Source: a virus. Taken from it: DNA of 64,000 nt. The notes under the pieces are model-generated. The model was not told the origin of the DNA and ran no database searches. It was given only the letters and a program-made list of their open reading frames with translations. Both the position numbers and the translations under genes were made by a program. Shown in pieces: positions 30,136-64,000 of this stretch (its first letter is position 1; the number at the start of each line of letters is the position of its first letter). Where the stretch lies: positions 19,354 through 83,353 of the IMG/VR virus record IMGVR_UViG_3300034105_001195; one strand, written 5' to 3'.

Positions 30136-30373
30136 TATCTATTGGCTTCTCCAAATTAAAATACTCATATGCTTGATCTTCTGAATCAAACCAGCGCCAT
30201 CCATCAACTGGATATTCATAGGTATCCTTTTCGTCTCTGTATAGGGCATAGTCTTGGTTTAATACATAGAGTCTACCACAGACTACCATGTTTTCATTTT
30301 CTACTCTGTAGAACCCGTCGGTTTTTTCGTGGTATCCCTCTTCAGGAATAACTTCATTATGTCTATATATCAT
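30128..30373 (-). CDS. Small hypothetical protein
   Basis: 81 aa coupled to the LRR gene; YEYPVDGWRWFDSE. Confidence 0.55.
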   Translation of the reverse strand: MIYRHNEVIPEEGYHEKTDGFYRVENENMVVCGRLYVLNQDYALYRDEKDTYEYPVDGWRWFDSEDQAYEYFNLEKPIDNV

Positions 30374-32928: not shown

Positions 32929-34811
32929 TATCCAACCTTCCATCCATAAGTAGTTCCAGTATAAAGTAATGTATACCAGCCACCATTATTGTCAATTATT
33001 AAATTTCCAGTCCCGCCGTTTATCTTATTGCCATTTCTGGCCACAGTTATATTATACGTCGAAGCGTTCCCTGAAGCATCTACGATCTGAATCTCATCAT
33101 TTAGCGCTGGAGACGCTGGAAGCGTCAATGTTAGCGCTGATGCCGATGTAACAAAATATCTTTTCTTTGCTACTAATGTAGTATTTGCTGAAATTGAAAG
33201 TGGGGCAACTGAGGTATTTGCAGCTAGTAGAGCATTTACTTCTGCCTGTGTATATGTGTCTACTGAGTTAGCTCCAGTTACTGAGACTATTTCGATTATA
33301 TCTGATGCCGCCGCCGCAGATGTTAAAGTTACTGTATTGCTGTTCGATGTTGTATAGTCTGTAGTCTTAACAAGAAGAAGACCGTTCATAAAGATCTGCT
33401 CAAACCCATCAATAAATGGGAGGTCGGCAGTAAATACTGTTTGCCCTGCTGTTGCAGTAATTGCCTTACGGCGAATAATATTAGAATCAAATGTAGTTAC
33501 ATCTTCATCTGAGTCAATCCAAATCTGACCAATCTCTGGAGATGTTGGGGCGGTTGTTTGATATAGAGCACCTGGTTGAACATTTGCATCAATTTCAGAC
33601 TGAACAAATGCTGTAGTTGCAACCTGTGTCGTATTTGTTCCAGATGTTGGAGTAATTGTAAACATAGCTCCAGATGCATCAATTTTGGCTATTGCTGTTC
33701 CAGTAGAGTTCTGCCATTGCTGAAGGTCTGCCGTTTGTAAAGATACTCCACGAACAACAACTGGGATTACAGATGGGTTAAATGTAGTTGCGTTAAGATA
33801 TCCTAAAGTTCCCGTGGTCATCTTTCCACCTGAATATGCTGTAGAAATCACACCTTCAGTTGCGGTTAATCCTCCAGATGAATTAAAAAATGTTACGGCG
33901 GTTCCACTTGAATTCTGAAATTCAAGTAGGTTAGCAGTTTGTGATGCTGCGGCTCGTATGACTGCACCTATAGTTGAAGCGGCTGGATTTACCACAGTAA
34001 GTGTTCCTAAAGTGGTTGAAATAGCTCCAGCGGTTATTGATACCGATGAATATATGCGTCCAGTTCCAGTTACTTGTGCTAGCACAGATGAAGTGTTACT
34101 TTGCCATTGTGTTAATGCCGAGCCTGAATTTTGTCCTACAGCGCCTTTAATTATAAGACCAGCATTACTGGAGGCACCAGTATTAATCTGTTGAGGTCCA
34201 ACTGTAAAAGTGTTAGCAGATGTTAGAGAAGCTTTATCAGACAAAGCAGTTGTAATTCCTGCAGCATATGATGCATCATCATTAATTGCCGCAGCTAATT
34301 CATTTAGAGTATCTAGGGCTGCTGGAGCGCCATCTATTAAATTGCCTAATTGAGCCAGAGGGATACGAGAATTTTCATCAAGTGTTGCAATTCCATCTGG
34401 CTGTCCAACTTCTGAAATTGGAACATATGTTTCGTCTGATGTATTACCTAAATTTGATACTGCTGTGTCAACATAAGTCTTTGTGGCAATTGTGCTATCT
34501 GTTGAAACTGTAATTGTATTTGCTATATCATCAGAGGATACTGTGATCCCGCCGCTTCCAGTTAATGCAAGAGCAATTGCGTCTCTGGCCTCTTCGTCTG
34601 TGTATGAGGCTACTGGGTTTGTCTCTAATTGCTTTACTCTATAATCAAGGCTTGTTGTGACCGCCGAATTATTAACGCCGACCTTTTCTTCAAGTTTTTC
34701 AATGGCATCATTTAGGTTCGCATGCTGAGAAGCATGAGAAGGATTGTTTACTGGGTCGGAACCTGCGGGATTTGTAAGGTTATCCAACGAGGTAGGGAAA
34801 TTAGTAGCCAT
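32928..34811 (-). CDS. Modular fibre protein
   Basis: MATNFPTSLD...HANLNDAI N-terminus; APAALDTLNELAAAI module; QVATTAFV; repeated QTA.L..WQNS. Confidence 0.75.
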   Translation of the reverse strand: MATNFPTSLDNLTNPAGSDPVNNPSHASQHANLNDAIEKLEEKVGVNNSAVTTSLDYRVKQLETNPVASYTDEEARDAIALALTGSGGITVSSDDIANTITVSTDSTIATKTYVDTAVSNLGNTSDETYVPISEVGQPDGIATLDENSRIPLAQLGNLIDGAPAALDTLNELAAAINDDASYAAGITTALSDKASLTSANTFTVGPQQINTGASSNAGLIIKGAVGQNSGSALTQWQSNTSSVLAQVTGTGRIYSSVSITAGAISTTLGTLTVVNPAASTIGAVIRAAASQTANLLEFQNSSGTAVTFFNSSGGLTATEGVISTAYSGGKMTTGTLGYLNATTFNPSVIPVVVRGVSLQTADLQQWQNSTGTAIAKIDASGAMFTITPTSGTNTTQVATTAFVQSEIDANVQPGALYQTTAPTSPEIGQIWIDSDEDVTTFDSNIIRRKAITATAGQTVFTADLPFIDGFEQIFMNGLLLVKTTDYTTSNSNTVTLTSAAAASDIIEIVSVTGANSVDTYTQAEVNALLAANTSVAPLSISANTTLVAKKRYFVTSASALTLTLPASPALNDEIQIVDASGNASTYNITVARNGNKINGGTGNLIIDNNGGWYTLLYTGTTYGWKVG

Positions 34812-34900: not shown

Positions 34901-35197
34901 CTACTGTAGTACAAAACCAAAATGCTTTAGTAAGAAGGTAGCTGCTAGGGCTGACCAGATTAGATTAAACCAAATTAGGGTAGGTAAAGTTTTAACTGTA
35001 GATGACCAGATTAAAGCAAGGCTGGTAACTAAAGCAATAATGTAGACCCACCAGATGCTAACTCCAAAAAGGAGGCCTGGGATAATGATTAAGGCCTTTG
35101 TAATAAAAGCAAAAAACTCAACAGTATTAGGAAGATTCCAATACTTCCTGTGTCTCATTGTTCCTAGGGCGTACAACCATTCTTTTCTAAATGTCAT
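34901..35197 (-). CDS. Small membrane protein
   Basis: 98 aa with about three hydrophobic segments; coupled to the halogenase gene. Confidence 0.7.
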   Translation of the reverse strand: MTFRKEWLYALGTMRHRKYWNLPNTVEFFAFITKALIIIPGLLFGVSIWWVYIIALVTSLALIWSSTVKTLPTLIWFNLIWSALAATFLLKHFGFVLQ

Positions 35198-36783
35198 TAT
35201 GCTTCATCCTTGTGATAGTTTTCTTTTAAGAACTGATAATGAGATGGGGCATTTTTAATTGCTTCATTCCACTTAAATTTAGAGTAGTCTGTAGCCAACT
35301 TAAATCTTTCTGCAACTAACTTATAATCAGAATCTGGATAATGGTACTTCCAGAAATTAATGCTAATATTGCTAATTGGATACCACTCGTTACCAACTGC
35401 AATACAGTGGAATCCATTATTTACACTTATCTCATATGCCTGACTAAGAAGCTTGCCGTCCATCTCTCTTACCCATTGATGAGCCGTCTCTCTTGTAATT
35501 TCTGGATTTACAACATCTCTAGATGTCATATACTTCCAAAAATCTGTGTCATCTCTTTTGCTAAGGACATAGTGTAATTGCAAGAAAGCAGAGAAAGTAT
35601 TAAAATGCTTTTTTACAGTAAAATTATATGTCTCTTGATCAAATTTTGTTATGTGACCTCTAGACAAACTCCGTACTAAATTGCTAGCATTTTCATGAAT
35701 AAAATAAAGACCATTGCTTTCTAGTGGCTCAAGGAATGCAGATGAGAGTCCAATAGCAACAACATTTTTGTTCCATGGCTTAGAAATGATACCCGATCTA
35801 AAATGAATGTCTCTGAATACTAAATCATCTGTAATTCTATGTGCGCCTTTTACCTTTCTTAGGTGCTCTTTAAACTCTTCTAGTGCTTCTTCTGGTGTTG
35901 TAAATCTATCTGAATAAACGTATCCTGTTCCTATTCTTGAATAAAGAGGAGCATTCCAAACCCAACCGTTTCCAAGGGCTGTAGACTCAGTGTAGTTTAC
36001 AACTTCTTCTTCAGGATTTTCATATGGAAGCTGAATAGCCCATGTTCTATTTACTGGTAAATATTCTGCATGTGATTCAAAAGGAGTATTAAGGGTTTCT
36101 GAAATAAGCATACCCTTAAAGCCAGTACAGTCTATATAAAGATCTCCAGAGACCACCTCTCCATCTTCTAGTGTGAGAGACTTAATACCATTATCATCGT
36201 GATCTATATTTGTTATTGTAGACTCTATATGCTTTACACCTCTAGGCTTGGCGTACTTGTCTTTAAGCCATTCCGCAAATTTAATTGCGTCAAATTGCAA
36301 TGCATAGTCTTTATGCATTGTAAACGAATCCATTTCGTTTTCTTTTGGAAAGTACATCTTGTTTGAGTTAAGAAGAACTGACTGAGGAAAAATGCAATCT
36401 ACGTAGTCTTGTTTTTTAATTTCTGGATTAAATATTTTCATCACATGCCAGTCATTGCCATTATCTAAAGCAAAATTTCCAACGTGTGGGGATCCGAATG
36501 GATAATGATACCCGCCATCACCCTTTTCATAAAAATCAGTAAATTTAATTGATAGCTTGTACGATGCGTTAGTATAAGACATAAAGTCTTTGTGATCAAT
36601 TTCCAAGGCATGTAGCCATGCGGTAAGTCCAGCTAGAGTAGATTCTCCTACTCCTATTTTAGAAATAGAAGGGCTTTCAATTAGAGTGATATCTCTATCT
36701 GGATAGTATTTTATTAGTGTTGCTGCTGTCATCCAGCCTGCTGATCCGCCGCCTACAATTACAATTTTATCTGACTGATACAT
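35197..36783 (-). CDS. Tryptophan halogenase (PrnA-like flavin-dependent halogenase family)
   Basis: IVIVGGGSAGWMTA (FAD binding), IGVGEST, ASYKLSIKF, YIDCTGF, GWVWNAPL, FLEPLES. Confidence 0.9.
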   Translation of the reverse strand: MYQSDKIVIVGGGSAGWMTAATLIKYYPDRDITLIESPSISKIGVGESTLAGLTAWLHALEIDHKDFMSYTNASYKLSIKFTDFYEKGDGGYHYPFGSPHVGNFALDNGNDWHVMKIFNPEIKKQDYVDCIFPQSVLLNSNKMYFPKENEMDSFTMHKDYALQFDAIKFAEWLKDKYAKPRGVKHIESTITNIDHDDNGIKSLTLEDGEVVSGDLYIDCTGFKGMLISETLNTPFESHAEYLPVNRTWAIQLPYENPEEEVVNYTESTALGNGWVWNAPLYSRIGTGYVYSDRFTTPEEALEEFKEHLRKVKGAHRITDDLVFRDIHFRSGIISKPWNKNVVAIGLSSAFLEPLESNGLYFIHENASNLVRSLSRGHITKFDQETYNFTVKKHFNTFSAFLQLHYVLSKRDDTDFWKYMTSRDVVNPEITRETAHQWVREMDGKLLSQAYEISVNNGFHCIAVGNEWYPISNISINFWKYHYPDSDYKLVAERFKLATDYSKFKWNEAIKNAPSHYQFLKENYHKDEA

Positions 36784-52385: not shown

Positions 52386-52461
52386 TGTGATGCGACTCAC
52401 AAAAGTTTTTTACCGACACGCCCGAGAAACGGGCATAAATGTCAGTCCCCCCTGCTAGAAT
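52386..52461 (+). promoter_or_regulatory. Early promoter 1: CRP site + CGACAC + TGTCAG-N10-TAGAAT
   Basis: TGTGATGCGACTCACA 52386-52401; TGTCAG 52440; -10 at 52456. Confidence 0.8.
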
Positions 52462-52517
52462 AAATATATAAAGAAAAACAAGCGGTAAAGAAATCCGCTA
52501 AAGAAAGGAGCAATCAA

Positions 52518-52727
52518 ATGCTCACTCAAAATACACTAGACAAAATTGTCTATGAATATCAACACGGGGGCGTGAAGTCTAACCACCCCGAATTGACTAC
52601 CTATGAGCGAAAGGCGTTGCTAAAACACTTATTCTCTCTCCCTACCTATTGCTCAAATTGCCACGGCAAGGGCGAGGTCTATGTCGGAAATGACGAGGAC
52701 TTTACCATTGAGCCTTGTGTGGTATAA
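52518..52727 (+). CDS. Early hypothetical protein (Cys-containing)
   Basis: 69 aa with an AAGGAG RBS; CSNCHGKG. Confidence 0.7.
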   Translation: MLTQNTLDKIVYEYQHGGVKSNHPELTTYERKALLKHLFSLPTYCSNCHGKGEVYVGNDEDFTIEPCVV

Positions 52728-52783
52728 ATCACACACGACACTAGCCCAAAATGGGGCTAGATGTCAGTAGGTCGTGATAGTCT
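52718..52783 (+). promoter_or_regulatory. Early promoter 2: CRP-like site + CGACAC + TGTCAG-N10-TAGTCT
   Basis: TGTGGTATAAATCACA 52718; TGTCAG 52762. Confidence 0.75.
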
Positions 52784-52809
52784 TACGACATACAAATAAA
52801 TAAAGAATT

Positions 52810-52863
52810 AGAGCGTGAGCCTAGCAAATAATCCGAAAGGTGAGCCTAGCAAATAATCGCTCT
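52810..52863 (+). repeat. 19-bp direct repeat within a symmetric stem-loop (candidate RNA element)
   Basis: GTGAGCCTAGCAAATAATC at 52815 and 52840, closed by AGAGCG/CGCTCT. Confidence 0.75.
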
Positions 52864-52902
52864 CAACAAAATAACAAACTAACGAAAAGGATAGAAAATA
52901 AA

Positions 52903-53058
52903 ATGAAAATTACTTACTCAATATGGCAAGGTGCTAACCTACTTAGCGTAGATAACACCGCTAACAATGCTGATGAATTACTAGATGTAATGAAAGACCT
53001 AAACAAACTAGGTAAAAACTTTACCTACAATGTAAGAAAAGTAGAGGTAAATAACTAA
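52903..53058 (+). CDS. Early hypothetical protein
   Basis: MKITYSIWQG, preceded by an RBS. Confidence 0.6.
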   Translation: MKITYSIWQGANLLSVDNTANNADELLDVMKDLNKLGKNFTYNVRKVEVNN

Positions 53059-53240
53059 TGTCATACGCATACTCATACCAAACTAATAGCGTATCTAAAT
53101 GGGATACCATACAGAGCGATATAGCAGACGCATATCGCCACCTTGATGATGAAGAATTAGAGCAACCTCCCGTTGATGATTTTGATGATGTTGATGATGA
53201 AGAATTAGCGAGAGTATTCGCTCTCAGTTGGGATAACTAA
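53058..53240 (+). CDS. Early acidic hypothetical protein
   Basis: 60 aa, translationally coupled. Confidence 0.6.
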   Translation: MSYAYSYQTNSVSKWDTIQSDIADAYRHLDDEELEQPPVDDFDDVDDEELARVFALSWDN

Positions 53241-53242
53241 TA

Positions 53243-53422
53243 ATGATTACAGACGGATTTATATTAGAAATAAATAGCGACTACGGATTAGAATTAGATA
53301 GTTTCTTAGGTGCTATCTACTTACCTTGGCACACTATTATTATCACCGCTCTAGCGGTAGTAGCCTATAAGGCTTATAAGATTTATCTAAAGCGAAACGG
53401 ATTAGTGGGGTGGAAATACTAA
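53243..53422 (+). CDS. Small membrane protein
   Basis: 59 aa read manually; hydrophobic segment followed by basic residues. Confidence 0.5.
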   Translation: MITDGFILEINSDYGLELDSFLGAIYLPWHTIIITALAVVAYKAYKIYLKRNGLVGWKY

Positions 53423-53585
53423 ATGACTACTAATCGCATACTAACTACGCTAGTCCAATTAGGTATCGGTATTCCCGCCCTAATTATGCTCCGCCTTGTA
53501 TGGCGTGAGATGATCGAGGACACTAAGCAAATGTGGCGTGAATCACACTAGTTATTCGGCGTGTCGGCTTGACAAAGTCAAGCTG

Positions 53586-53647
53586 GCCCGCAAAGGCACG
53601 GGGTCGGGCGTGTCGTTACGCTAATGTTATAGAACCCCTTGAATTTT
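53586..53647 (+). repeat. Early-region scaffold repeat, copy 1
   Basis: GCCCGCAAAGGCACGGGGTCGGGCGTGTCGTTACG is identical at 54466; 27 nt are identical at 55912. Confidence 0.9.
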
Positions 53648-53723
53648 GTGAGGTTTATCACAAAAAAAGATTTCTTGAAACACGGCGTGTCGTGTTGATA
53701 ATGTCGGTGTGCTCGTGTATACT
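53647..53723 (+). promoter_or_regulatory. Early promoter: perfect CRP site + TGTCGG-N10-TATACT
   Basis: TGTGAGGTTTATCACA 53647; TGTCGG 53702. Confidence 0.8.
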
Positions 53724-54142
53724 ACCTACTATAACCACAACGAAAGGTCGATAAAATGACACTAGATGAATACAAGGCTTATGTAGAAGCCACACGCAAG
53801 GAAAGCCTATTGAAGGCTATCGCAACAATGTCAGAGGCTAATGATAAGATGTCCTCTCTATTCAATACTAAGGAGGCAGACTAAATGGGTTATGTAGAAA
53901 TCTTTCGCATAGATGATGAGGGTGCTGGCTGGGTAGATTTATCCGAAGCAACCCCCGATGAATTACTAGATTTAGAAATTGGTTTATTTCAGGAAGGTGC
54001 TATCTAATGAAAAAATACACATTTGGCGTTTGGCTAGACATAGACGCAGAAGATGAAGAAATGGCGTTATCTTTATTTGATAGCGTTGTGAAAAATGCTT
54101 TTGTTTCAGACTCTTATTGTTTTGAATGGAAAGAGGTCGCAG

Positions 54143-54337
54143 ATGAAATCGCAGTTTGAAAAAGATTTAGAAATCAAGGAAAGTTTTATTGATTTACTAA
54201 ATGACATTTACCCTAGCGTAAAGATTGGCTACTCTACTTTTACACCCGCCGAAATTTTAGAATGTTGCGACCCAGTAGCATTTGCGATTGGCTTAGTTGA
54301 ACACGAAGATTATTTAGCAGAAATGGAAAATGAATGA
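54143..54337 (+). CDS. Early hypothetical protein
   Basis: MKSQFEKDLEIKESFIDLLND...CCDPVAF. Confidence 0.6.
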   Translation: MKSQFEKDLEIKESFIDLLNDIYPSVKIGYSTFTPAEILECCDPVAFAIGLVEHEDYLAEMENE

Positions 54338-54465
54338 GCGACTTATTCGGATTTGAAAAAGCAATTCAATTAGATCATCTTAGCGATGAGCAAATAAATC
54401 AGCTTGAGGAAATCCTAAAAGATTTTCAATAACTAGCGGCGTGTCGCCTTGACAAAAGGTGATCC

Positions 54466-54527
54466 GCCCGCAAAGGCACGGGGTCGGGCGTGTCGTTACG
54501 ACAATGTTATAAAATCCCGTGAAATTT
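54466..54527 (+). repeat. Early-region scaffold repeat, copy 2
   Basis: 35-nt exact match to 53586. Confidence 0.9.
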
Positions 54528-54565
54528 GCGGCGTGTCGATTTGACAGACAAATCGGACATATTGA

Positions 54566-54651
54566 TGTGATTAGTATCACACGACTTGAGCGTCTCAGTA
54601 TTTGGACTTACTGGCTAGTAATGTGAAAATGTCAGTGGGTTCGTGTATAAT
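54566..54651 (+). promoter_or_regulatory. Early promoter: perfect CRP site + TGTCAG-N10-TATAAT
   Basis: TGTGATTAGTATCACA 54566; TGTCAG 54630. Confidence 0.8.
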
Positions 54652-54686
54652 TCCATACATAACAACAAACGAAAGAAGGTCTGCCA

Positions 54687-54896
54687 ATGGCTACCAAACT
54701 ATACACAATCGAAAGCCTACTTGTAGGACAAAACTATCGCTCACGAAATCGCCACTTTGAGGGTGAAATCGTATCTGCTCGACCACGCCCCGAAATTTGG
54801 TATGGCGATAAAACTGAAGCCTATCTAATCGGAATAAATTATCGTGGCTCAATAAAAACTCAATACGCAACTATTGCGGTGAAGGTCGGTGAATAA
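54687..54896 (+). CDS. Early hypothetical protein
   Basis: 69 aa with an RBS, directly after the promoter. Confidence 0.7.
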   Translation: MATKLYTIESLLVGQNYRSRNRHFEGEIVSARPRPEIWYGDKTEAYLIGINYRGSIKTQYATIAVKVGE

Positions 54897-55224
54897 ATGA
54901 AAAGTTTTTCATCTGATGTAATTGACCACAATGAATTTTATCTAATTCACGATTTGATATTTTTCTGTTGTGATGAACAACAATTCCGCCACTCTTGTAA
55001 AGAACACGGCGAGATTATGGGTTGCTATTATTGCGAATTTGATTACTCAACAAAATGCGAGTGTGATGAATAATGATAAACTCAGTAATGCGAATAGATT
55101 GCTCAGATTGTAATTCAACTGGTCTAATCTTTTTTGGCGATAACAATAATTTTGATGTCGAAACTTGCGATTGCGATTTCGGCAAAGAACAAGATTTATT
55201 TTTCAACTAACGAAAGGGAAACTA

Positions 55225-55431
55225 ATGTATAAAATAACTGTTGCTAATGATAGCGAGCCTATCCACTTTGTAAGAGAATACTCAGATGAATTAGAGGCTC
55301 ACACCGAATTCGCTAAGTATGTGGATTGGGGATTTGCTGATGAATACTCAACTGTAAATCTTTACACACCTAGCGGAAAATGCTACACGAAATTATTTTA
55401 TCGTGAAGGTAGAAGGGTCGTAGTAAAATGA
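55225..55431 (+). CDS. Early hypothetical protein
   Basis: MYKITVAND..., AACGAAAGGG leader. Confidence 0.65.
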   Translation: MYKITVANDSEPIHFVREYSDELEAHTEFAKYVDWGFADEYSTVNLYTPSGKCYTKLFYREGRRVVVK

Positions 55432-55587
55432 ACGGATACAAATTCAGAACTGCGCTTGCTAAAATTGCTCCTGATTACCAAATAGATGAGGATAATGACG
55501 GACAAATTATTATTTACACAAATCTAAAAGATGACGGAAATGATAACTATGTAGAGTTTGACCTAGACGAATTGGAGAACAACTAAA

Positions 55588-55779
55588 ATGATGACACGAA
55601 AAGATTATGTCGCTACCGCAGAAATTCTAAAGTATGCCAGCGACAAAACTCACCCCGCTTTATTTTCTAAAATCGTAAATGATTTTGCGGAAATGTTTGC
55701 GGTTGATAATCCGAGATTTGATGTAAAACGATTTCACGAAGCGAGTGGATACAATGTTCCTAAATTCACTTCAAGATAA
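55588..55779 (+). CDS. Early hypothetical protein
   Basis: MTRKDYVATAEIL...DNPRFDVKRF, a pattern common in phage early proteins. Confidence 0.7.
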   Translation: MMTRKDYVATAEILKYASDKTHPALFSKIVNDFAEMFAVDNPRFDVKRFHEASGYNVPKFTSR

Positions 55780-55885
55780 AGTAAAGCGAATTCAGGAATT
55801 GCGTCGCAGTAATGCGGCGCAACCTGTTCGCAATAAAAAGAAATACACACGCAAGATCAAACATAAGAATAAATATTCAGAGTAG
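55754..55885 (+). CDS. Small basic protein (43 aa)
   Basis: Manual translation MFLNSLQDKVKRIQELRRSNAAQPVRNKKKYTRKIKHKNKYSE. Confidence 0.55.
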   Translation: MFLNSLQDKVKRIQELRRSNAAQPVRNKKKYTRKIKHKNKYSE

Positions 55886-55940
55886 CGCATAACTATGCAG
55901 CTCGCCCCCATAGGCACGGGGTCGGGCGTGTCGTTACGGG

Positions 55941-56005
55941 TGTGATCAAAATCACCCTGGAAAGCTGGGCCAGGATTGGAATATGTCGGTCCATTCTGCT
56001 ATACT
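55941..56005 (+). promoter_or_regulatory. Early promoter: CRP-like site + TGTCGG-N10-TATACT
   Basis: TGTGATCAAAATCACC 55941; TGTCGG 55984. Confidence 0.75.
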
Positions 56006-56032
56006 TGCCATTCAACCAACGATTGAGGTCCA

Positions 56033-56752
56033 ATGAAACTGAAACGCTCTAACGATAGAAAGGTGGCTAACCTTGTCACAAAAAATGGAAAGCAAGCAGC
56101 AATTGCCAACACTTTCGGATTACCTGCTGGAAAAAATTTCTCGTGCCCTGGTGCCACTAGTATTTGTGAAAGCGTTTGCTACGCAGGAAAACTCGAAAAG
56201 TTATTCCCTGGAGTAAAAACTAATCTGCTACACAATTGGGAATTGCTACGCAATGCCGATATGGATACAATGCTTATTCTATTAGATGAGATGATTGTAG
56301 AATTTATCGCCGATTGTGAAAAGAAAGACGCTCCTAAGTTATTCCGTATACACTGGGACGGTGACTTCTTCAATGATACTTATACATATGCCTGGAAAGT
56401 AATTATTGAAAATCATCCCGATGTTCAATTTTGGGTTTATACTCGTGTAAAATCTGCAGCGCTTATTCTAAAGGATGTCTCTAACCTATCTCTCTATTAT
56501 TCTACCGACGATGATAATAAGGAAATCGGTCACGAACTAAAAGTAAATGAGGGAATTCGTCTTGCTTACCTAGGGAAGACATTCGCCGTGACTGAAAGCA
56601 CAATGAAAGAATTGACTGGCAAGCCTGGCGCTAAGTGTCCTGAAAATATGAAGAGTATTCCACTGATTAGCAATGCAGGGTCCGCCTGCGTATCGTGTGG
56701 CTTGTGCGTTTATGGAAAAGCGGATGTTAGATTTTCTGCGAGTAAAAAATAA
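56033..56752 (+). CDS. GP88-family (radical-SAM-like, Cys-rich) phage protein
   Basis: SCPGATSICESVCYA, FRIHWDGDF, FWVYTR, CVSCGLC. Confidence 0.75.
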   Translation: MKLKRSNDRKVANLVTKNGKQAAIANTFGLPAGKNFSCPGATSICESVCYAGKLEKLFPGVKTNLLHNWELLRNADMDTMLILLDEMIVEFIADCEKKDAPKLFRIHWDGDFFNDTYTYAWKVIIENHPDVQFWVYTRVKSAALILKDVSNLSLYYSTDDDNKEIGHELKVNEGIRLAYLGKTFAVTESTMKELTGKPGAKCPENMKSIPLISNAGSACVSCGLCVYGKADVRFSASKK

Positions 56753-56904
56753 TGACTGACATGATCGGATCTGCAATTGGAATTCTATTAATTGCATTCT
56801 TGTGCTCACCAATTGTGCTAGCCATGTACGTGTGGCGTGGTGCCAAGGTTGATAATAATCATGACGGTAAAGATGATGTGCCCTATCGTTGGGAGAAAGA
56901 ATAA
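56752..56904 (+). CDS. Small membrane protein
   Basis: 50 aa with an N-terminal transmembrane segment, then DNNHDGK. Confidence 0.5.
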   Translation: MTDMIGSAIGILLIAFLCSPIVLAMYVWRGAKVDNNHDGKDDVPYRWEKE

Positions 56905-56952
56905 CGGCGTGTCGAGTTGACAATTGTCAGCTCGGCCCCTATATGTAGGGGG

Positions 56953-56982
56953 TTATCCACAGGGTTACGAGAGTTATCCACA
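56953..56982 (+). promoter_or_regulatory. Two perfect DnaA boxes (direct, 21 bp apart)
   Basis: TTATCCACA at 56953 and 56974. Confidence 0.75.
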
Positions 56983-56993
56983 ACCCCTGAAAT

Positions 56994-57064
56994 TGTGAGT
57001 ATTATCACAAAAACTGCGACACGCCGAGGATGGATTAGGTAATGTCAGTGCCATACGCTATAAT
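56994..57064 (+). promoter_or_regulatory. Early promoter: perfect CRP site + CGACAC + TGTCAG-N10-TATAAT
   Basis: TGTGAGTATTATCACA 56994; CGACAC 57017; TGTCAG 57043. Confidence 0.8.
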
Positions 57065-57092
57065 TGCTACTATCCAACAACGAAAGGTAACA

Positions 57093-57317
57093 ATGTCTAA
57101 TCTAATCAAAGTTCCACACACAGTAGTATTCGAGGCAATAATTGACTTGGATAAAATTCCTGCAAGTTTATTGCCTGCGCTAATTGCGCTTGACGAAACA
57201 ACACTAAAGCAAATGTGCAAGGAAGCAACACTACACGCACTTGGTATGTCTAATGTATTACCACTTGCTAATGAAAACAATACTTGGGCTGAAGTAACTA
57301 TTGCGAAAGGAAACTAA
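57093..57317 (+). CDS. Early hypothetical protein
   Basis: MSNLIKVPH, after AACGAAAGGT. Confidence 0.65.
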   Translation: MSNLIKVPHTVVFEAIIDLDKIPASLLPALIALDETTLKQMCKEATLHALGMSNVLPLANENNTWAEVTIAKGN

Positions 57318-57319
57318 CA

Positions 57320-57586
57320 ATGGGATACAATACTGCACTAGATTTATCTAATGAGTTTGATTTAGAAGTAGCAATTGGCTATCACTTACAAGGTAATCAT
57401 TACCCGCCCGTTCCACTATCTATGGTCGAGCCTTGCATCGAGGCTATTGACGCCTATTGGGAAAATGACTACAACCGACAGATCGAAATGCCTGAAGGCG
57501 TATTCTATCGAGGCGAAAGGTTTGCACCTGCATCGGCTATTGTCGAACAGCACCACCTAGACGCTTGGCTACAAGAAAGTGACTAA
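57320..57586 (+). CDS. Early hypothetical protein
   Basis: HLQGNHYPPVP...HHLDAWL. Confidence 0.7.
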   Translation: MGYNTALDLSNEFDLEVAIGYHLQGNHYPPVPLSMVEPCIEAIDAYWENDYNRQIEMPEGVFYRGERFAPASAIVEQHHLDAWLQESD

Positions 57587-57653
57587 GGTCACACAATAAG
57601 TTTCTCAAATAGTGAGATAGGGCTAGACAAATGTCAGACCCCAATGTTATACT
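57578..57653 (+). promoter_or_regulatory. Early promoter: CRP-like site + TGTCAG-N10-TATACT
   Basis: AGTGACTAAGGTCACA 57578; TGTCAG 57632. Confidence 0.75.
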
Positions 57654-57680
57654 TACCACCTACACAGAAAAGAGGCAAAA

Positions 57681-57863
57681 ATGACAATCAACGACAAGTT
57701 GTATCAGGTTGGCGATTTATTCACCACCCTAAAGTCAAAAAAGACGGGCGTTATCAAAGAGATACACCCACAAGCATCTGGCTCGGTGCGTGTCTTGCTA
57801 GAAATGCCTAGCAAAGAAACTCGCTGGACTTCAGTATCTGCTAAAACACTTCTAGGCGCATAA
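57681..57863 (+). CDS. Small SH3/KOW-like early protein
   Basis: YQVGDLF...TGVIKEI. Confidence 0.6.
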   Translation: MTINDKLYQVGDLFTTLKSKKTGVIKEIHPQASGSVRVLLEMPSKETRWTSVSAKTLLGA

Positions 57864-57942
57864 CCTAGAACGAAACAGGGACAGTTTAGAGAGTGTTCTA
57901 GTCCAATGTCGTAAGTAAGAACTCTCCACCTTCGGGTGGAAA

Positions 57943-57964
57943 TGTCAGACCCCCCTGCTATACT
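57943..57964 (+). promoter_or_regulatory. Early promoter TGTCAG-N10-TATACT
   Basis: Exact motif upstream of the 58004 ORF. Confidence 0.75.
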
Positions 57965-58003
57965 ATCCATAACAACAACCAACCAACGAAAGGCAATAAA
58001 TAA

Positions 58004-58420
58004 ATGAGCAGACAAATCACAGTAAAGGTCGCAACGACCAAAGTAATCAAGGCACTAGAGGCTCGTCTAGCAACGCTAGAAAACGATTACAACACACAGA
58101 CCGCAAAGGAAGTAAAGTTCGGCAAAGCGCAAGAAGCGTGGCGCAAGGAAATTGGTAAGTGGGCTATTGCCAACTTCTCAAAGGCTGAGAACCTTCGCAC
58201 AAACTATCGTGCTTGGAACAACACTCTCAATGTTGATTTTGACATCATCACAAAAGAGGGAACTTTCCCTGCTGAACCTGAAAAGGATTTTGAGGTTATC
58301 CATCAGCATCAGTATCGTGAGATGAAAGAGGACATCACAAATGCCCTAACAATTCTCAAGATGACAGATGAGGAAACAGTAAATGCTTCCACTATGAAGC
58401 AAATTGCTAAGTATCTCTAA
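58004..58420 (+). CDS. Early hypothetical protein
   Basis: 138 aa with an AACGAAAGG leader. Confidence 0.75.
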   Translation: MSRQITVKVATTKVIKALEARLATLENDYNTQTAKEVKFGKAQEAWRKEIGKWAIANFSKAENLRTNYRAWNNTLNVDFDIITKEGTFPAEPEKDFEVIHQHQYREMKEDITNALTILKMTDEETVNASTMKQIAKYL

Positions 58421-58528
58421 ATAGGTTTTGGGGGGTTAGCACACAAAGTCTAGACACCTGAACCCAAACGACCTGAGTAAGTCGCCAAACTGCTCTCCTT
58501 CGGGAAACTACTAACAAAGGCAAAACAA

Positions 58529-58789
58529 ATGGCAAATCGCTATCGTGTCGAAATCTATGACGCAAACAAACTCAATGATGTAACAATTTATTCTGAGCAA
58601 GGTGTTGATAAGGAATACCTAACTGAATTAGTTTTTAGCAATCTAAATAAATTCAGCGGCAAAATAAATGCTTACGTTTTTGACAACGTAAAGAAAAAGA
58701 AGACAACCGCAATGTTCTTAGATGAATCTATTGTGAACTTCAATAAACAATTACTAAGCAAGGCTACAAGGATCGAATTCGGGAGTTAA
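58529..58789 (+). CDS. Early hypothetical protein
   Basis: 86 aa with an AAAGG RBS. Confidence 0.65.
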   Translation: MANRYRVEIYDANKLNDVTIYSEQGVDKEYLTELVFSNLNKFSGKINAYVFDNVKKKKTTAMFLDESIVNFNKQLLSKATRIEFGS

Positions 58790-58818
58790 TCCCGAGCTCG
58801 GCCCCCAATGGTGAGGGG

Positions 58819-58850
58819 TTATCCACAGCGTTACGGCCACCTGTGGATAA
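58819..58850 (+). promoter_or_regulatory. Two perfect DnaA boxes (inverted pair)
   Basis: TTATCCACA 58819 and TGTGGATAA 58842. Confidence 0.75.
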
Positions 58851-58862
58851 ACCCTGAAATTC

Positions 58863-58938
58863 TGTGAGATTAATCACACTGATCAATTCGGACATATTGT
58901 AACTAATCCTAGACAATGTCAGTGGGGTCTGTTATACT
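58863..58938 (+). promoter_or_regulatory. Early promoter: perfect CRP site + TGTCAG-N10-TATACT
   Basis: TGTGAGATTAATCACA 58863; TGTCAG 58917. Confidence 0.8.
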
Positions 58939-58969
58939 TACAACTAATCAAACGAAAGGTAAAAAATAT

Positions 58970-59977
58970 ATGGCTCACAATCTAGAAATGGAAAACGGCG
59001 AAGTTGCTTTCGCTCTCCGTGGCGCACCTGCTTGGCACAACCTTGCAAATCGCATCTTTACAAAAGATGAGGAAGTTACAACTGCAACAATGCTTGAAGA
59101 AGCAAAGTTAGCAAATTGGAATGTTCGCTTATCTCCACTCACCGACCACATTTCAGAATCTTGGAATGATGTATCTCAGGCTCAGTTGGTTATTCGTGAT
59201 AACCCATTCAATAAGGGAACTGATGTTCTCGCAACTGTTGGCAAGCGTTACAAGCCAGTTCAGAATGAGGAACTATTTGCATTCGCCGATGCAATTCACG
59301 ATGCCAATGCTGATTGCCGTTGGGAATCTGCTGGCTCACTAAAGAAGGGCAAAGTTGTGTTCGGAACTGTAGATATTCCACGCACAATGGTTCTTGACCC
59401 ACAAGGCGCTAACGATGAGACAAAACTTTATCTCATTGTATGGACTTCACACGATGGTTCTGTTGCCGTTCAAGCAGCGGTTACTCCTGTTCGTGTTGTC
59501 TGTCAAAATACATTGAACCTTGCAATGCGTAATGCTAAGCAATCATTCAAGATTCGTCATACACAATCTGTTGATGGTCGTATTCAAGTTGCTCGTGAAA
59601 CTCTTGGGCTTGCTCTTGGTTACTTCGATGAATTCGAAACTGAAGCAAAGGCACTTTACTCTCAGGCAATTACTGATGCTGAATTTTCTAAGTTGATTCA
59701 GACAATCTATCCTAAGCCAGATAAGGATTCTGCTAAGGTTGCATTGACTAAGTGGGAGAATAAGGTTGTCCTGCTTGATGAGTTGTATCATAACTCACCA
59801 ACTAACGCTAACATCAAGGGAACTAAATGGGGTGCGTTCAATGCACTTACTGAGCGCCTTGATTACTATCGTTCAGGTCGTGGCAATTCTGAAACACTAA
59901 TGGCTGGTGCATCAGGCTTTGACCCAATTCTAACTGCTGAGAAAAACAAAATCAAGAAATTGGTTTCTGCTTTCTAA
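58970..59977 (+). CDS. DUF932-family phage/plasmid protein
   Basis: MAHNLE...PAWHNL, YKPVQNEELF, ESAGSLKKG, SHDGS, TPVRVVCQNTL, IRHT, GTKWGAFNALTE. Confidence 0.88.
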   Translation: MAHNLEMENGEVAFALRGAPAWHNLANRIFTKDEEVTTATMLEEAKLANWNVRLSPLTDHISESWNDVSQAQLVIRDNPFNKGTDVLATVGKRYKPVQNEELFAFADAIHDANADCRWESAGSLKKGKVVFGTVDIPRTMVLDPQGANDETKLYLIVWTSHDGSVAVQAAVTPVRVVCQNTLNLAMRNAKQSFKIRHTQSVDGRIQVARETLGLALGYFDEFETEAKALYSQAITDAEFSKLIQTIYPKPDKDSAKVALTKWENKVVLLDELYHNSPTNANIKGTKWGAFNALTERLDYYRSGRGNSETLMAGASGFDPILTAEKNKIKKLVSAF

Positions 59978-60024
59978 ATAAATAAATCCTGAGCAAGATT
60001 CAAAACTGCTCACAATTTTTTCTT

Positions 60025-60098
60025 GATCCATTAGCTCAGTTGGTTAGAGCGCTACCCTGTCACGGTAGAGGCCGACGGTTCAAGTCCGTTATGGGTCG
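60025..60098 (+). tRNA. tRNA-Asp(GTC)
   Basis: Acceptor stem GATCCAT/ATGGGTC; D-arm GCTC/GAGC; anticodon arm CTACC-CTGTCAC-GGTAG; T-arm GACGG-TTCAAGT-CCGTT; CCA not encoded. Confidence 0.92.
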
Positions 60099-60142
60099 CA
60101 TATCAATATGTGAGACGCCCGCAGTATTAAGGGAACTAAAAC

Positions 60143-60208
60143 TGTGTTACGACTCACATAAAAAATCCCCTGAAATCTATTGCATATGTCAGTGGGGTCG
60201 TGTACAAT
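60143..60208 (+). promoter_or_regulatory. Early promoter: CRP-like site + TGTCAG-N10-TACAAT
   Basis: TGTGTTACGACTCACA 60143; TGTCAG 60187. Confidence 0.75.
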
Positions 60209-60237
60209 ACTCCATATACAACAACGAAAGGTATAAA

Positions 60238-60663
60238 ATGTCATCACGAACTAAAGGTTACATTGGAACACTAGTGGACGGCAAAAAGCTTGCCACAATT
60301 GCAAATGGTATATATAACTTACAATACAGTTCAGACTTTTCTGAGTGCACAGTAGATAATCTATTGTTTATTGAATTAGAAGAGAAGAATGTATTTGGGG
60401 ATCCTAAATATGCTCTCGTATGCTCAGAGGGTGTTGGCTGGGAACAAGATACATATGGTTGCCTAGAAGTACCAACAAACATCGGCGCTATGGGTCTATG
60501 GAATGGACGTGTCTTTATCTCAGTAGATACTGTTAAGTCTTGCCTTACTGATAAGACTGAGGATATATCAGATTACATTAGAGTCTTTGGCTCCCGCCTT
60601 GATTCCAACTGCTCCCTATGGCAGTCCAAGATGTCAGTGGCTACTGCTACAATAGCGCAATGA
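60238..60663 (+). CDS. Early hypothetical protein
   Basis: Start MSSRTKG after AACGAAAGGT; the longer ORF-track start overlaps the tRNA. Confidence 0.7.
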   Translation: MSSRTKGYIGTLVDGKKLATIANGIYNLQYSSDFSECTVDNLLFIELEEKNVFGDPKYALVCSEGVGWEQDTYGCLEVPTNIGAMGLWNGRVFISVDTVKSCLTDKTEDISDYIRVFGSRLDSNCSLWQSKMSVATATIAQ

Positions 60664-61322
60664 CAAAGTATCAGAAGTATACCTGGGTGTGCACAGGCGA
60701 CTGTGACGCATTAATCGAATACACATTTAAAGATGGCTATGGATGGCCAAACGGTGTGATGGACCTCACATGCAGATGTGGGACCAATTGCACATTATTG
60801 TCAGTGGAAGATGCTACAATACCGTATACAGATTCACCCCTACCAACGGAAGAGGAAAAAATGGAAACAACAGAAACATCAGCAGTAACAGTTCCCGATA
60901 CATATAACCCTAACCTATTGGTTACCTACAAAGTAATCCGTGGTTATTCAGATGCAGAATATGCAACTGACAAGGTAACATCAATTGAGTGGGACTTGCA
61001 CAATGCACGTCAAGCACAGAAAACTAATGGCGTCTACCAAGACAAGATTAATACAGTCAAGGACATCATCACTGAAGTCTATGAAGATTCAGATGACAAG
61101 GATACACTACGTTCAATCGCAGAAGCCCTTGGCATCGAATTGGTTCGAGAAGTTTTATTCACTGCAACTCTCGAAGTTAGCGGAACATATACATATAACA
61201 TTCTTGAGAATGATTATGACCTCGACCTTGATTCAGAAGTCACAGATGCTCTTTACGCCGATTCAAATAACGGTAACATCACAATTGATGACACCGAAGT
61301 TTGCCACGTAAGGGAAGCATAA
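60660..61322 (+). CDS. Early protein with a Cys-rich N-terminus and an acidic C-terminus (possible second start at 60861)
   Basis: ATG lies 7 nt after the -10 of motif 60632; an internal promoter motif at 60799 and a GAGGA RBS precede METTETS. Confidence 0.65.
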   Translation: MTKYQKYTWVCTGDCDALIEYTFKDGYGWPNGVMDLTCRCGTNCTLLSVEDATIPYTDSPLPTEEEKMETTETSAVTVPDTYNPNLLVTYKVIRGYSDAEYATDKVTSIEWDLHNARQAQKTNGVYQDKINTVKDIITEVYEDSDDKDTLRSIAEALGIELVREVLFTATLEVSGTYTYNILENDYDLDLDSEVTDALYADSNNGNITIDDTEVCHVREA

Positions 61323-61534
61323 TGTATTTCGAGTTGACTGCTCCCGATAGGCTATCTCTTGAGATGGCTTATTGGGATGCACAAATCACAGGGCTCGACC
61401 CAGAATTTATGCCACCGTTGACATTCAATGTTGGAACTGGTAGTATTGAGAAAGTAAGTCGTATTCGTGACAAGTATAATTTATCCGAATCATATTGGTC
61501 AGACAGAGAAGCGACAGGATACAAGGAGAAATAA
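61322..61534 (+). CDS. Early hypothetical protein
   Basis: MYFELTAPD, coupled start. Confidence 0.6.
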   Translation: MYFELTAPDRLSLEMAYWDAQITGLDPEFMPPLTFNVGTGSIEKVSRIRDKYNLSESYWSDREATGYKEK

Positions 61535-61676
61535 TGTCAGATTACAAGGATGGTTTTGAGGACGGGTATAAGTTTGCTCGTGAAGAGATTATGGAGAAGT
61601 TGGCAGAGATTGATATCGCTGACATCGACTCTTGGATTCTTGACCGTCTTTCAGAAATGATTGAAGGTGGGTCACT

Positions 61677-61886
61677 ATGACAACCGAAGATCTAAATCGC
61701 TGGATTGGTTGTGATCAATGCAGCACGGCACAGGCAATGTATCTAATTAAACTTATGGATGGCGAGCTTTTCTTTTGCGGGCACCATTTCAATAAGAACA
61801 AAGAGGCCCTTGACAAGGTCTCATACGAAGTGATAGAATTAAACAAAATAGAAGAAGCGGCACCTATACTAGAAACGGCGGAATAA
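61677..61886 (+). CDS. Small Zn-binding protein
   Basis: CDQC...LFFCGHH. Confidence 0.7.
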   Translation: MTTEDLNRWIGCDQCSTAQAMYLIKLMDGELFFCGHHFNKNKEALDKVSYEVIELNKIEEAAPILETAE

Positions 61887-61887
61887 A

Positions 61888-62256
61888 ATGGGCGATAGAG
61901 CAAACTTTGGTTTTAAAGACCGTAAGGGAGATACAATCTTTCTATACGGCCACTGGGCTGGACATCGAATGCTAGAGAATCTAGCCAATGCTGTGGAGCA
62001 GGCACGTCCACGCTGGTCCGATGAATCATATGCTACACGTATCTGTGTTAGCCAATTGGTAAATGAAGAATGGGCTAGCGAAACAGGTTGGGGCCTAAAT
62101 GTAAATGAATTAGGTGACAACGAGCACAAGGTCCCTATTATTAACTGGGCCGAAAAAACGTTTACCCTAATGGAAGAGGACCTGCAGACAGAGGTCTTCA
62201 GCCAATCGCTGGATGCATTTGTTGCTAAGCATTCCAGTCAACCAAGTATGGTATAA
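61888..62256 (+). CDS. Phage early hypothetical protein
   Basis: MGDRANF...LYGHWAG...RWSDESYATRI. Confidence 0.75.
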   Translation: MGDRANFGFKDRKGDTIFLYGHWAGHRMLENLANAVEQARPRWSDESYATRICVSQLVNEEWASETGWGLNVNELGDNEHKVPIINWAEKTFTLMEEDLQTEVFSQSLDAFVAKHSSQPSMV

Positions 62257-62381
62257 TTAATCCAAGGACCTTGGTCCTGGTTTTAATATAGAAATGAAAT
62301 GGTGCATCTATTTAGTCTACGGGCCAGGTGCTAAGTAAAGCGGTTTATTTCTTTCGTTGGAAATCAGCAGCCATATTCATA

Positions 62382-62412
62382 CCCCCCAGCTATAAGCTGG
62401 GGGTTTCTTTTT
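62382..62412 (+). terminator. Rho-independent terminator
   Basis: CCCCCAGCT-ATA-AGCTGGGGG followed by TTTCTTTTT. Confidence 0.85.
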
Positions 62413-62476
62413 GCCCACAAAGACATGAGGGTATCATATCTCTTTTACGACGTCAATATAAAAAGCCCTAGAATTT

Positions 62477-62560
62477 TGTGATCTTGACCACATTCTGAAT
62501 AAAATGTGGTGTGAAACACACCCAAATACTATTCCAAATGTCAGTGGTCCATTGTATAAT
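62477..62560 (+). promoter_or_regulatory. Early promoter: two CRP-like sites + TGTCAG-N10-TATAAT
   Basis: TGTGATCTTGACCACA 62477; TGTGGTGTGAAACACA 62505; TGTCAG 62539. Confidence 0.75.
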
Positions 62561-62587
62561 TGGAACATATCAACGAAAGGATATAAA

Positions 62588-63382
62588 ATGCCAAATTGGT
62601 GTTACAACACATTAACTATCCAAGGACCTAAGTCTGAGGTAGATATGATTAAAGATAGATTGAATGCTCCATTTACATTAGCACAGGAGACATTTGGTAT
62701 GGGTGATATTTCTTCTATGGGTTTCCCCACCAAAATTGAACAGGTAACTTATTCTAATCCTGTCTTTGCTTTCTTTAATATCCACTCATATAAGGATGAC
62801 GGTATTACTGATGAGGAATATGCCTGCCAGCCTTCTCGTGGTGATATAGATATTCAGAATGACCCTGATTGGTTCCGCAAATCTGTTGAGTTTGCTAAGA
62901 CTCAGAAGGATTGGTATTCTTGGAATAATTCCAACTGGGGAACTAAATGGGATGTAGCCGTCCGTGACGGTGATGAATATCCAAATACAGAATTGCTTGA
63001 ATATAAATCAGAAGGTGATGACAACTGGGTTGTATATAAGTATGAGACTGCTTGGTCACCTGCTGTAACTATCTTAACTAAACTATCTAATCTTGTTCCT
63101 AACTGCCTGCTTACTTTAGAGTATGAGGAAGAAACAGGTTGGGGTGGGGAATATGAGATTGTCCGTGGTGATGTTAAAACTATTCTAGAATATGAGAATC
63201 GCTGTTATGCTTGCCAATCTTTTGATACATTAGATTACTGCGAGAATGACTGCGGTGAATTCTGCTCTGAATGCAATGAGGGTTCTTGGCAGAATGAAGT
63301 GGAAATGGCAGAATGTCAGACCCATAGTGTAATATTAGCAAATCAGAAAACCTACACACAGGAGGAAGCATTAAATGGCTAG
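62588..63382 (+). CDS. DUF1281/YubB-like ferredoxin-fold protein with a Cys-rich tail
   Basis: MPNWCYNTLTI, DWYSWN..NWGTKWD, YETAWSP, LEYEEE. Confidence 0.8.
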   Translation: MPNWCYNTLTIQGPKSEVDMIKDRLNAPFTLAQETFGMGDISSMGFPTKIEQVTYSNPVFAFFNIHSYKDDGITDEEYACQPSRGDIDIQNDPDWFRKSVEFAKTQKDWYSWNNSNWGTKWDVAVRDGDEYPNTELLEYKSEGDDNWVVYKYETAWSPAVTILTKLSNLVPNCLLTLEYEEETGWGGEYEIVRGDVKTILEYENRCYACQSFDTLDYCENDCGEFCSECNEGSWQNEVEMAECQTHSVILANQKTYTQEEALNG

Positions 63383-63590
63383 TTTCTTAGAAGATGTAAA
63401 TCAAATGGTAATTGACGCTGTCTATCAAGATATAGCAGAGCAATTGCTAGAAGACTGGATTAATAATAATCTTGACGAGGGTCAATATTATGCAGATAAA
63501 CAATTTGCTGAAATGTCAGGAGATAGGTTTATCCAAGATGAGTTTAATAAATTCTATAATCTAAAAGAAGGAGATGAGGACTACCTATGA
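63375..63590 (+). CDS. Acidic hypothetical protein
   Basis: 71 aa with a GGAGG RBS. Confidence 0.65.
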   Translation: MASFLEDVNQMVIDAVYQDIAEQLLEDWINNNLDEGQYYADKQFAEMSGDRFIQDEFNKFYNLKEGDEDYL

Positions 63591-63753
63591 GAAGTTATGA
63601 CTTTGTAATTAAATTAGCAGGTAGTGTATCTGCTAACAATGAGGAAGAAGCACACGAGAAAATTAATCTACACCTAGACGATTTAGGTGCAGTAGATAGT
63701 TTAAGATACGATTTGGAATGGCCTGATGTATCTTGGGATATGGAGTATGAGTT

Positions 63754-63936
63754 ATGCTAGGTTATACTGAATCCGATCTAAATAGAATGATTAATGCTGT
63801 TCACGATGCTAAGTTATTCTATCTTAGGACCCCGTCCGATTTAATGGACAAGCAACCTTTGAGGAAAGACCTAGAAGACGCTGTTAGTTTCTTGCAAGGT
63901 CTGTGGGCGGAGGGTTACTTTGACCACACAAACTAA
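63754..63936 (+). CDS. Hypothetical protein
   Basis: 60 aa; FLQGLWAEGYF. Confidence 0.6.
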   Translation: MLGYTESDLNRMINAVHDAKLFYLRTPSDLMDKQPLRKDLEDAVSFLQGLWAEGYFDHTN

Positions 63937-64000
63937 ATCTAGTAGGTTCATAGAGTATATGAAGATACATCTAATTAGTCTTATGCAAGACTTAGAGGCA

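Follow-up and report, generated by a model that had tools for sequence, protein, structure and literature searches.

Promoters resembling the actinobacterial PafBC class in the small-gene block of a lake phage group

We analysed a stretch of 64,000 nucleotides of viral DNA (hereafter the window), which corresponds to bases 19354-83353 of the IMG/VR virus record IMGVR_UViG_3300034105_001195 (83,353 bp, estimated to be 68% complete) and has a G+C content of about 40%. Towards its end lies a block of small genes in which a hexamer, TGTCRG (the box), recurs exactly 10 nt upstream of a -10 element, ahead of one gene or gene pair after another. At the level of sequence, these sites agree in each feature with the consensus of the promoters served by PafBC, the activator of DNA-repair genes in mycobacteria. 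We read them as candidate PafBC-class promoters (also known as '-26 element' or RecA-NDp promoters), which the PafBC of the host would read together with the housekeeping sigma factor. We give this reading a probability of about 0.5.

Number, placement and geometry of the box sites

Within the window, TGTCRG-N10-TANNNT is matched 16 times, 15 of them on the + strand (52440 to 63335) and one on the - strand (16056). In 100 shuffles preserving dinucleotide composition, the mean was 1.01 matches and the maximum 5, so that none (0/100) reached 16. The whole 83,353-bp record contains the same 15 + 1 matches and no further site, and the reversed pattern gives 2 + 0. The match on the - strand falls within the open reading frame (ORF) of the prohead protease and is probably due to chance. 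The 14 positions listed in a first-pass annotation of this DNA, made from the letters alone, were all exact, and it had overlooked a fifteenth site on the + strand at 63314. Its remark that nearly all copies sit just upstream of gene blocks also holds: 13 of the 15 have a start codon preceded by a Shine-Dalgarno (SD) sequence 27-56 nt past the -10. For the promoter at 52762 the next such start lies 119 nt past the -10. The one at 60632 has none within 150 nt and probably works in tandem with that at 60799. Replication iterons and packaging repeats were considered and rejected, as they leave unexplained why the sites keep a set distance to a consensus -10, use a single strand and lie 27-56 nt from start codons. 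The block and its promoters are as follows.

52440 to 64000, + strand: small-gene block, about 35 small genes, with a box-type promoter ahead of each gene or pair
52440 to 52461, + strand: promoter 1, TGTCAG-N10-TAGAAT; opens the block at the point where it diverges from the - strand genes; start at 52518, 56 nt past the -10
52762 to 52783, + strand: promoter 2, TGTCAG-N10-TAGTCT; next SD-preceded start at 52903
53702 to 53723, + strand: promoter 3, TGTCGG-N10-TATACT; start at 53756
53829 to 53850, + strand: promoter 4, TGTCAG-N10-TAAGAT; start at 53885
54630 to 54651, + strand: promoter 5, TGTCAG-N10-TATAAT; start at 54687
55984 to 56005, + strand: promoter 6, TGTCGG-N10-TATACT; upstream of the GP88-family gene at 56033-56752
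57043 to 57064, + strand: promoter 7, TGTCAG-N10-TATAAT; start at 57093
57632 to 57653, + strand: promoter 8, TGTCAG-N10-TATACT; start at 57681
57943 to 57964, + strand: promoter 9, TGTCAGACCCCCCTGC-TATACT; box and spacer near-identical to bacterial sites ahead of DNA-repair genes
58917 to 58938, + strand: promoter 10, TGTCAG-N10-TATACT; upstream of the DUF932 gene at 58970-59977
60187 to 60208, + strand: promoter 11, TGTCAG-N10-TACAAT; start at 60238
60632 to 60653, + strand: promoter 12, TGTCAG-N10-TACAAT
60799 to 60820, + strand: promoter 13, TGTCAG-N10-TACAAT; start at 60861
62539 to 62560, + strand: promoter 14, TGTCAG-N10-TATAAT; upstream of the gene at 62588-63382 (DUF1281_C match)
63314 to 63335, + strand: promoter 15, TGTCAG-N10-TAATAT; start at 63375

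The arrangement is conserved across related phages. Querying IMG/VR with the DUF932 protein brought up 283 related loci; each of the best 80 of these 283 (93-100% identical) has between 7 and 18 matches to the pattern, with few exceptions on the gene strand. Four complete relatives (110-115 kb) have 14, 16, 15 and 17 forward copies versus 0, 0, 0 and 1 reverse ones, and 59 of their 63 sites fall in a single block of 10-13 kb. From 498 distinct cores, the logo W-TGTCAG-(T/A)-S-S-N3-M-T-G-N-TAYAAT was obtained, with TGTCAG at about 2 bits per position, of which TGTC and the G at position 6 were fixed by the search pattern (positions are numbered from the start of the box). When TGTC stands at the right distance from a strong -10, positions 5-6 hold letters other than RG in only 13 of 212 distinct sites. 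The region where a -35 element would be expected is not conserved in these cores (at most 0.13 bits at logo positions -9 to -4), and in the block generic -35/-10 matches do not exceed chance (38 versus 31.1 +/- 5.5 in shuffles). The box promoters thus lack the TTGACA-like hexamer 16-18 nt upstream of the -10 that defines the canonical sigma A class.

The distance between box and -10 is rigid. Among distinct sites in the relatives, the spacer is 10 nt in 199 cases and 8 nt in 3, with no case at 6, 7, 9 or 11-14 nt and none on the reverse strand. Such a rigid spacer over diverged copies points to a reader that would bridge the two elements, i.e., a protein touching both the box and the polymerase bound at the -10.

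Likeness to bacterial PafBC promoters

In PMC8635444, the PafBC consensus is tGTCgg(N10)tA(N3)T; the box spans -23 to -28, there is no -35 element, R46 and R50 of PafB read GTC, and PafC contacts sigma region 4. We compared the phage sites with those of five Actinomycetota genomes, which hold 144 box sites versus 1 for the reversed-pattern control. In the first 30 of these 144, the base after the box is most often T (12) or A (8), despite the 73% G+C of the loci, and the commonest triplets at positions 7-9 are TGG, ACC, TGC and TCC, together 13 of 30; counted from the site listing, TGG occupies these positions in 39 of the 144. The same four triplets lead in the phage sites, where they account for 200 of 257 distinct sites against an expected 4.5%. 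The flank of the RecA-NDp box is known as TGTCRGTG, and this promoter type is reportedly treated by Gamulin (2004). Some bacterial sites, of the form TGTCRGACCCCC, are almost identical to the phage site at 57943 and precede genes for RadA-like, HD-dGTPase-like and RmuC proteins. Among small genomes, the 350 nt preceding recA contain TGTC-N12-TANNNT in 7 of the 15 with PafC versus 0 of the 14 without it.

The first-pass annotation had proposed the PafBC/RecA-NDp class for these promoters, with either the host or the phage supplying the activator. As far as sequence goes, the class assignment stands in box, spacing and lack of a -35, as well as in the bases that the search pattern left free. The alternative that the phage encodes its own WYL or PafBC-like activator gained no support from searches with the WYL (PF13280) and HTH_PafC (PF19187) profiles. 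The former yields nothing at E<=1, be it in the window's own record or in five relatives of 98-100% completeness, and the latter nothing at E<=10 in the five phage records searched. Sigma-70 region 2 (PF04542) likewise has no match in six phage records, and a search for WhiB in the window's own record was negative. The HTH_11 family gave weak matches only (E 0.003-0.02), to an ORF of 50 residues in 3 of 5 phage records. As for an activator of the T4 type, neither WYL, HTH_PafC nor sigma-70 region 2 was matched in the five or six phage records searched; the MotA and AsiA families were not searched. Since the -10 is of consensus form, the sigma factor would be the primary one of the host.

A proposed host reader for the box and its rivals

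The closest cultured kin of the phage are Streptomyces phages of the BE cluster (Stanwilliamsviridae), to which its portal protein is 57-60% identical. Homologues of its GP88 protein occur in 393 records of cultured phages (283 Mycobacterium, 101 Streptomyces) and those of its DUF932 protein in 633 records, mainly actinophages; a megablast of the block against cultured phages gave no match. Several genes outside the block are leaderless, with an ATG 6-7 nt past the -10, and leaderless genes are common in actinobacteria. Parts of the block occur in 24 sequencing runs from as many coded studies; every run carries a lake or freshwater label, and one may be the source sample. On account of this actinophage kinship, the leaderless genes and the lake and freshwater runs, we infer that the host is a lake actinobacterium. 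Going by these runs, the phage group is common in lake metagenomes.

According to PMC11804915, PafBC alone does not bind duplex DNA, joins a polymerase already placed on a PafBC promoter only if it is loaded with single-stranded DNA (ssDNA), and can also bind ssDNA gaps. A mechanism for the phage promoters could run as follows. Host RNA polymerase with sigma A would bind the consensus extended -10 (TGnTAYAAT), whose strength in the phage sites would favour the first docking step of PafBC. Host PafB/PafC loaded with ssDNA would insert between sigma region 4 and the DNA and read the GTC of TGTCAG at -28 to -23, thereby substituting for the absent -35 contact. The block of 11 kb would then fire, or be strongly boosted, once ssDNA appears in the infected cell, whether from nuclease attack on the entering genome, from the start of phage replication or from the breakdown of host DNA. 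With slightly less than even odds, we would go further and propose that this globally abundant group of lake phages swapped the -35 of its small-gene promoters for the PafBC box of the host, turning the ssDNA alarm of the cell into a viral on-switch, and that it would be the first known case of a virus exploiting 'sigma adaptation'.

Several observations weigh against PafBC as the reader. Three cultured relatives of the BE cluster have 0, 1 and 1 sites. The phage sites differ from the bacterial ones in two respects: position 5 is A in 227 of 257 phage sites and G in 25 of 30 bacterial sites, and TG stands at positions 14-15 in 157 of 257 phage sites versus 1 of 30 bacterial ones. The phage sites also carry a consensus -10. 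Box-less promoters of the phage share the TGnTAYAAT element; hence the box promoters might fire without an activator. The need of PafBC for ssDNA (PMC11804915) fits awkwardly with a strict role of the block as 'first genes'; if ssDNA is required, the block may fire upon nuclease attack or the onset of replication rather than first. Attempts to identify the host from shared genes also returned no host signal: the KatG-like protein of a complete relative (G001) is 58-62% identical to proteins from many phyla, and the best hit of the phage tRNA-Asp among 301 Actinomycetota is 89% identical over 56 nt.

The distribution of PafBC in potential hosts counts against it as well. HTH_PafC is present in 182 of 301 sampled Actinomycetota, so PafBC is not universal in the phylum, and a WYL domain occurs in only 6 of the 30 Actinomycetota genomes of 1.3-1.8 Mb. 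A streamlined lake host may therefore lack PafBC. The small genomes that were picked belong to orders represented by only 5-6 species. The tallies over the 301 Actinomycetota include up to 11 genomes flagged as unpublished (G011, G028, G058, G092, G098, G130, G158, G184, G236, G249 and G278), and no claim about a single genome rests on them. Two genomes of low G+C with pafB-pafC, G030 and G260, were tried as models of the host and set aside, as they do not use the form of the box found in the phage: box matches stand at 18 versus 10 for the control in G030 and 15 versus 18 in G260, i.e., there is no enrichment, and TGG, ACC, TGC or TCC occupies positions 7-9 in 0 of their 33 sites.

Two details of these genomes, however, count in favour of PafBC. 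The recA gene of G030 has a TGTCGC box at the right distance, and in PafB of G260 the RMFERD stretch with R46 and R50, the residues that read the box, is unchanged, as seen in its alignment to the M. smegmatis chain 7p5x_AY (E 1e-26). No box was found within 260 nt of recA in G250, G211 and G260. In G185, a small Actinomycetota genome of low G+C, the promoter of recA (L254) is TTGACA/TATAGAAT, and a CGAAC-N4-GTTCG palindrome, which is not a box of the PafBC type, overlaps it; we read the palindrome as a putative LexA-type box.

It is possible, though unlikely, that TGTCAG is read by a phage factor without a WYL domain or by another host factor. In that case the block would be a 'middle' class similar to that of T4 MotA, and a product of the box-less promoters would turn it on. 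The phage does have such a second, box-less class that the host polymerase could read first, most of its proteins belong to no known family and leave room for an unrecognised DNA-binding protein, and the low-GC genomes with PafBC lack the phage form of the box. Such a factor would, however, have had to converge on the box of the host, on its exact 10-nt spacing and on the same flank preferences, and none of the five or six phage records searched has an HTH_PafC, WYL or sigma domain. The constancy of the box over 498 distinct cores also speaks against it, whereas pairs of phage factors and their sites usually drift.

Still less probable is that the promoters are constitutive ones of the extended -10 type and that TGTCAG serves as the operator of a repressor, from phage or host, for shut-off or immunity. 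Shut-off of early genes through sites overlapping promoters is common in phages, TGnTAYAAT alone seems to act as a promoter elsewhere in this genome, and TG is present in 157 of the 257 distinct box sites. Yet the remaining 100 of 257 without TG would be weak promoters, and an operator does not require the exact distance observed (199 sites at N10, 3 at N8 and no other from 6 to 14 nt). The box is moreover an asymmetric element of 6 bp, without a second half-site conserved in the logo. As repressor, PafBC itself is excluded by its failure to bind duplex DNA alone (PMC11804915). Finally, the box might have no function and be carried along within a promoter cassette that spread by duplication or recombination inside the block, which we consider very improbable. 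Joints at promoter copies in contigs from lake metatranscriptomes suggest recombination between cassettes, and other repeated elements accompany the promoters. But TGTCAG keeps its roughly 2 bits per position amid freely diverged sequence around and between box and -10, with the few departures at positions 5-6 given above (13/212). Hitch-hiking would not preserve six bases and a spacer length amid varying neighbours. A host PafBC remains the reading that we prefer.

The small-gene block, its surroundings and comparable systems

The block continues past the end of the window, which is also that of the contig, and the complete relatives have one or two further such promoters there. The only Pfam matches among its products are GP88, DUF932 and DUF1281_C, and none of the products has an assigned function. 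It also contains a tRNA gene.

60025 to 60099, + strand: tRNA-Asp(GTC) gene, within the block and directly before promoter 11

The genes may count as 'early' by likeness, because they are small and two of them have homologues in the terminal-repeat block of Streptomyces BE phages. Six runs of lake metatranscriptomes contain 24-36% of the sampled words, and contigs from four of them map to the block; these contigs are assembled, come from libraries that may contain DNA and give no start, strand or level, so that we draw no conclusion on transcription from them. Some of the contigs (53593-58946 and 52467-57962) join distant points of the block, e.g., 57962 to 52467 and 53965 to 58946, and some of the joint ends lie at or beside promoter copies. 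The repeated promoters may thus be points at which gene cassettes are exchanged in the phage population.

The block also contains palindromes of the CRP/GlxR type. TGTGA-N6-TCACA, with at most one mismatch, occurs 13 times in the window versus 2.6 times in shuffles; 12 of the 13 lie within the block (52386-62492), and in 11 of these 12 the first base precedes that of a TGTCRG box by 43-64 nt. Their centres fall at about -64, -74 and -84 from the inferred transcription start, in roughly helical phasing. Because of this position upstream of the boxes and this rough phasing, the box promoters may also respond to a protein of the Crp family.

Outside the block, the genes of the window are nearly all on the - strand and encode capsid, protease, portal, fibres and halogenase-like and ribonucleotide-reductase-like proteins. 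For the structural and middle genes, the first-pass annotation had described ordinary promoters of the form TTGNNN-17/18-TANNNT, where it could identify them. This was borne out weakly: some TTGACA elements occur at -35 in G001, and the window shows extended -10 promoters, mostly without a -35. The - strand of the window has 11 of the latter (TGnTAYAAT), one of the 11 with TTG at -35 and none with a box. Examples outside the block are those at 51294, 26265, 13643 and 9539 on the - strand, and others occur in G001 (L092-L097).

Among the individual genes of this region, one of the tryptophan-halogenase family (E 3e-109) lies at 35197-36783 (- strand) amid the structural and fibre genes. Collagen triple-helix repeats occur in two fibre-like proteins (22254-23330 and 24436-26250, both on the - strand), and a protein of 857 residues at 30370-32943 (- strand) has five DUF285 repeats. 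Genes for DNA polymerase III alpha, DnaB, RecA and a KatG-like enzyme are present in a complete relative. In G001, the catalase-peroxidase has 687 residues (L093:13497-15560, - strand; Pfam peroxidase, E 5e-65), and the same genome further encodes a GuaC/IMPDH-like enzyme, a 2OG-Fe(II) oxygenase and a subtilase.

The first-pass annotation knew of no account of these promoters as a phage class, and we likewise found no description in the literature on PafBC/RecA-NDp and phages, in a search that did not cover one study on pafBC and mycobacteriophage resistance. If a host PafBC reads the box, a viral gene programme would be gated by a DNA-damage sensor of the host with an unusual mechanism, so far known only from mycobacterial repair genes. 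Phage infection, the sensing of ssDNA by WYL proteins and the timing of defence and counter-defence would become linked, and ssDNA would act as the trigger for genes of takeover or counter-defence. About 500 natural promoter variants would also become available for studying the grammar of PafBC promoters. Reagents for a direct test of the claim already exist, namely the M. smegmatis RNA polymerase-sigma A, PafBC and dT12 ssDNA used in PMC11804915.

The closest parallel to the phage sites is provided by the PafBC promoters of Mycobacterium and other Actinobacteria. Both have TGTCRG at -28 to -23, a spacer of 10 nt, TANNNT and no -35, and in both the box is followed by T or A and then by GG or CC. 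The phage sites differ in that they are borne by a virus, precede at least 15 units of small genes instead of repair genes and prefer A over G at position 5; their -10 is of full consensus with the extended TG, and a CRP-type palindrome precedes most copies by 43-64 nt. Among actinophages, the stoperators of cluster A mycobacteriophages are also short, asymmetric repeats in one orientation relative to transcription. They are repressor sites, scattered over the genome and not known to be phased to a -10, whereas the box is confined to one block and locked at 10 nt from its -10.

The middle promoters of T4, with a MotA box at -30, resemble those of the lake phages in that an upstream box at a non-standard distance replaces the -35 while the host primary sigma reads the -10. 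T4 makes its own activator and co-activator; in the lake phages no candidate was found with the WYL, HTH_PafC and sigma-70 region 2 families, and the box equals that of a host activator. PMC8635444 itself draws the comparison of PafBC with the 'sigma appropriation' of T4 MotA/AsiA. The terminal-repeat block of the Streptomyces BE phages, e.g., Karimac (NC_048724.1), is homologous to that of the lake phages. In both, one strand carries numerous tiny genes, with a hairpin, a promoter and a short leader for every gene, and they share the genes for DUF932 (47-51% identical) and GP88. In the first 11.8 kb of Karimac (1-11.8 kb, L242), each small gene has a hairpin, GCCGCCCCGG, often AAAAGATCTTG, and then a -35/-10 promoter with TAGACT as its -10. 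The upstream element GCCGCCCCGG is not known to have been described; no search aimed at it was made. Unlike the lake phages, its block thus uses -35/-10 promoters with this element (11 copies on the gene strand) and no box: TTGNNN-N17/18-TAGNNT occurs 12 times on the gene strand versus once on the other, and TGTCRG boxes 0 times. The box of the lake phages sits where these kin have their -35, as sigma adaptation predicts.

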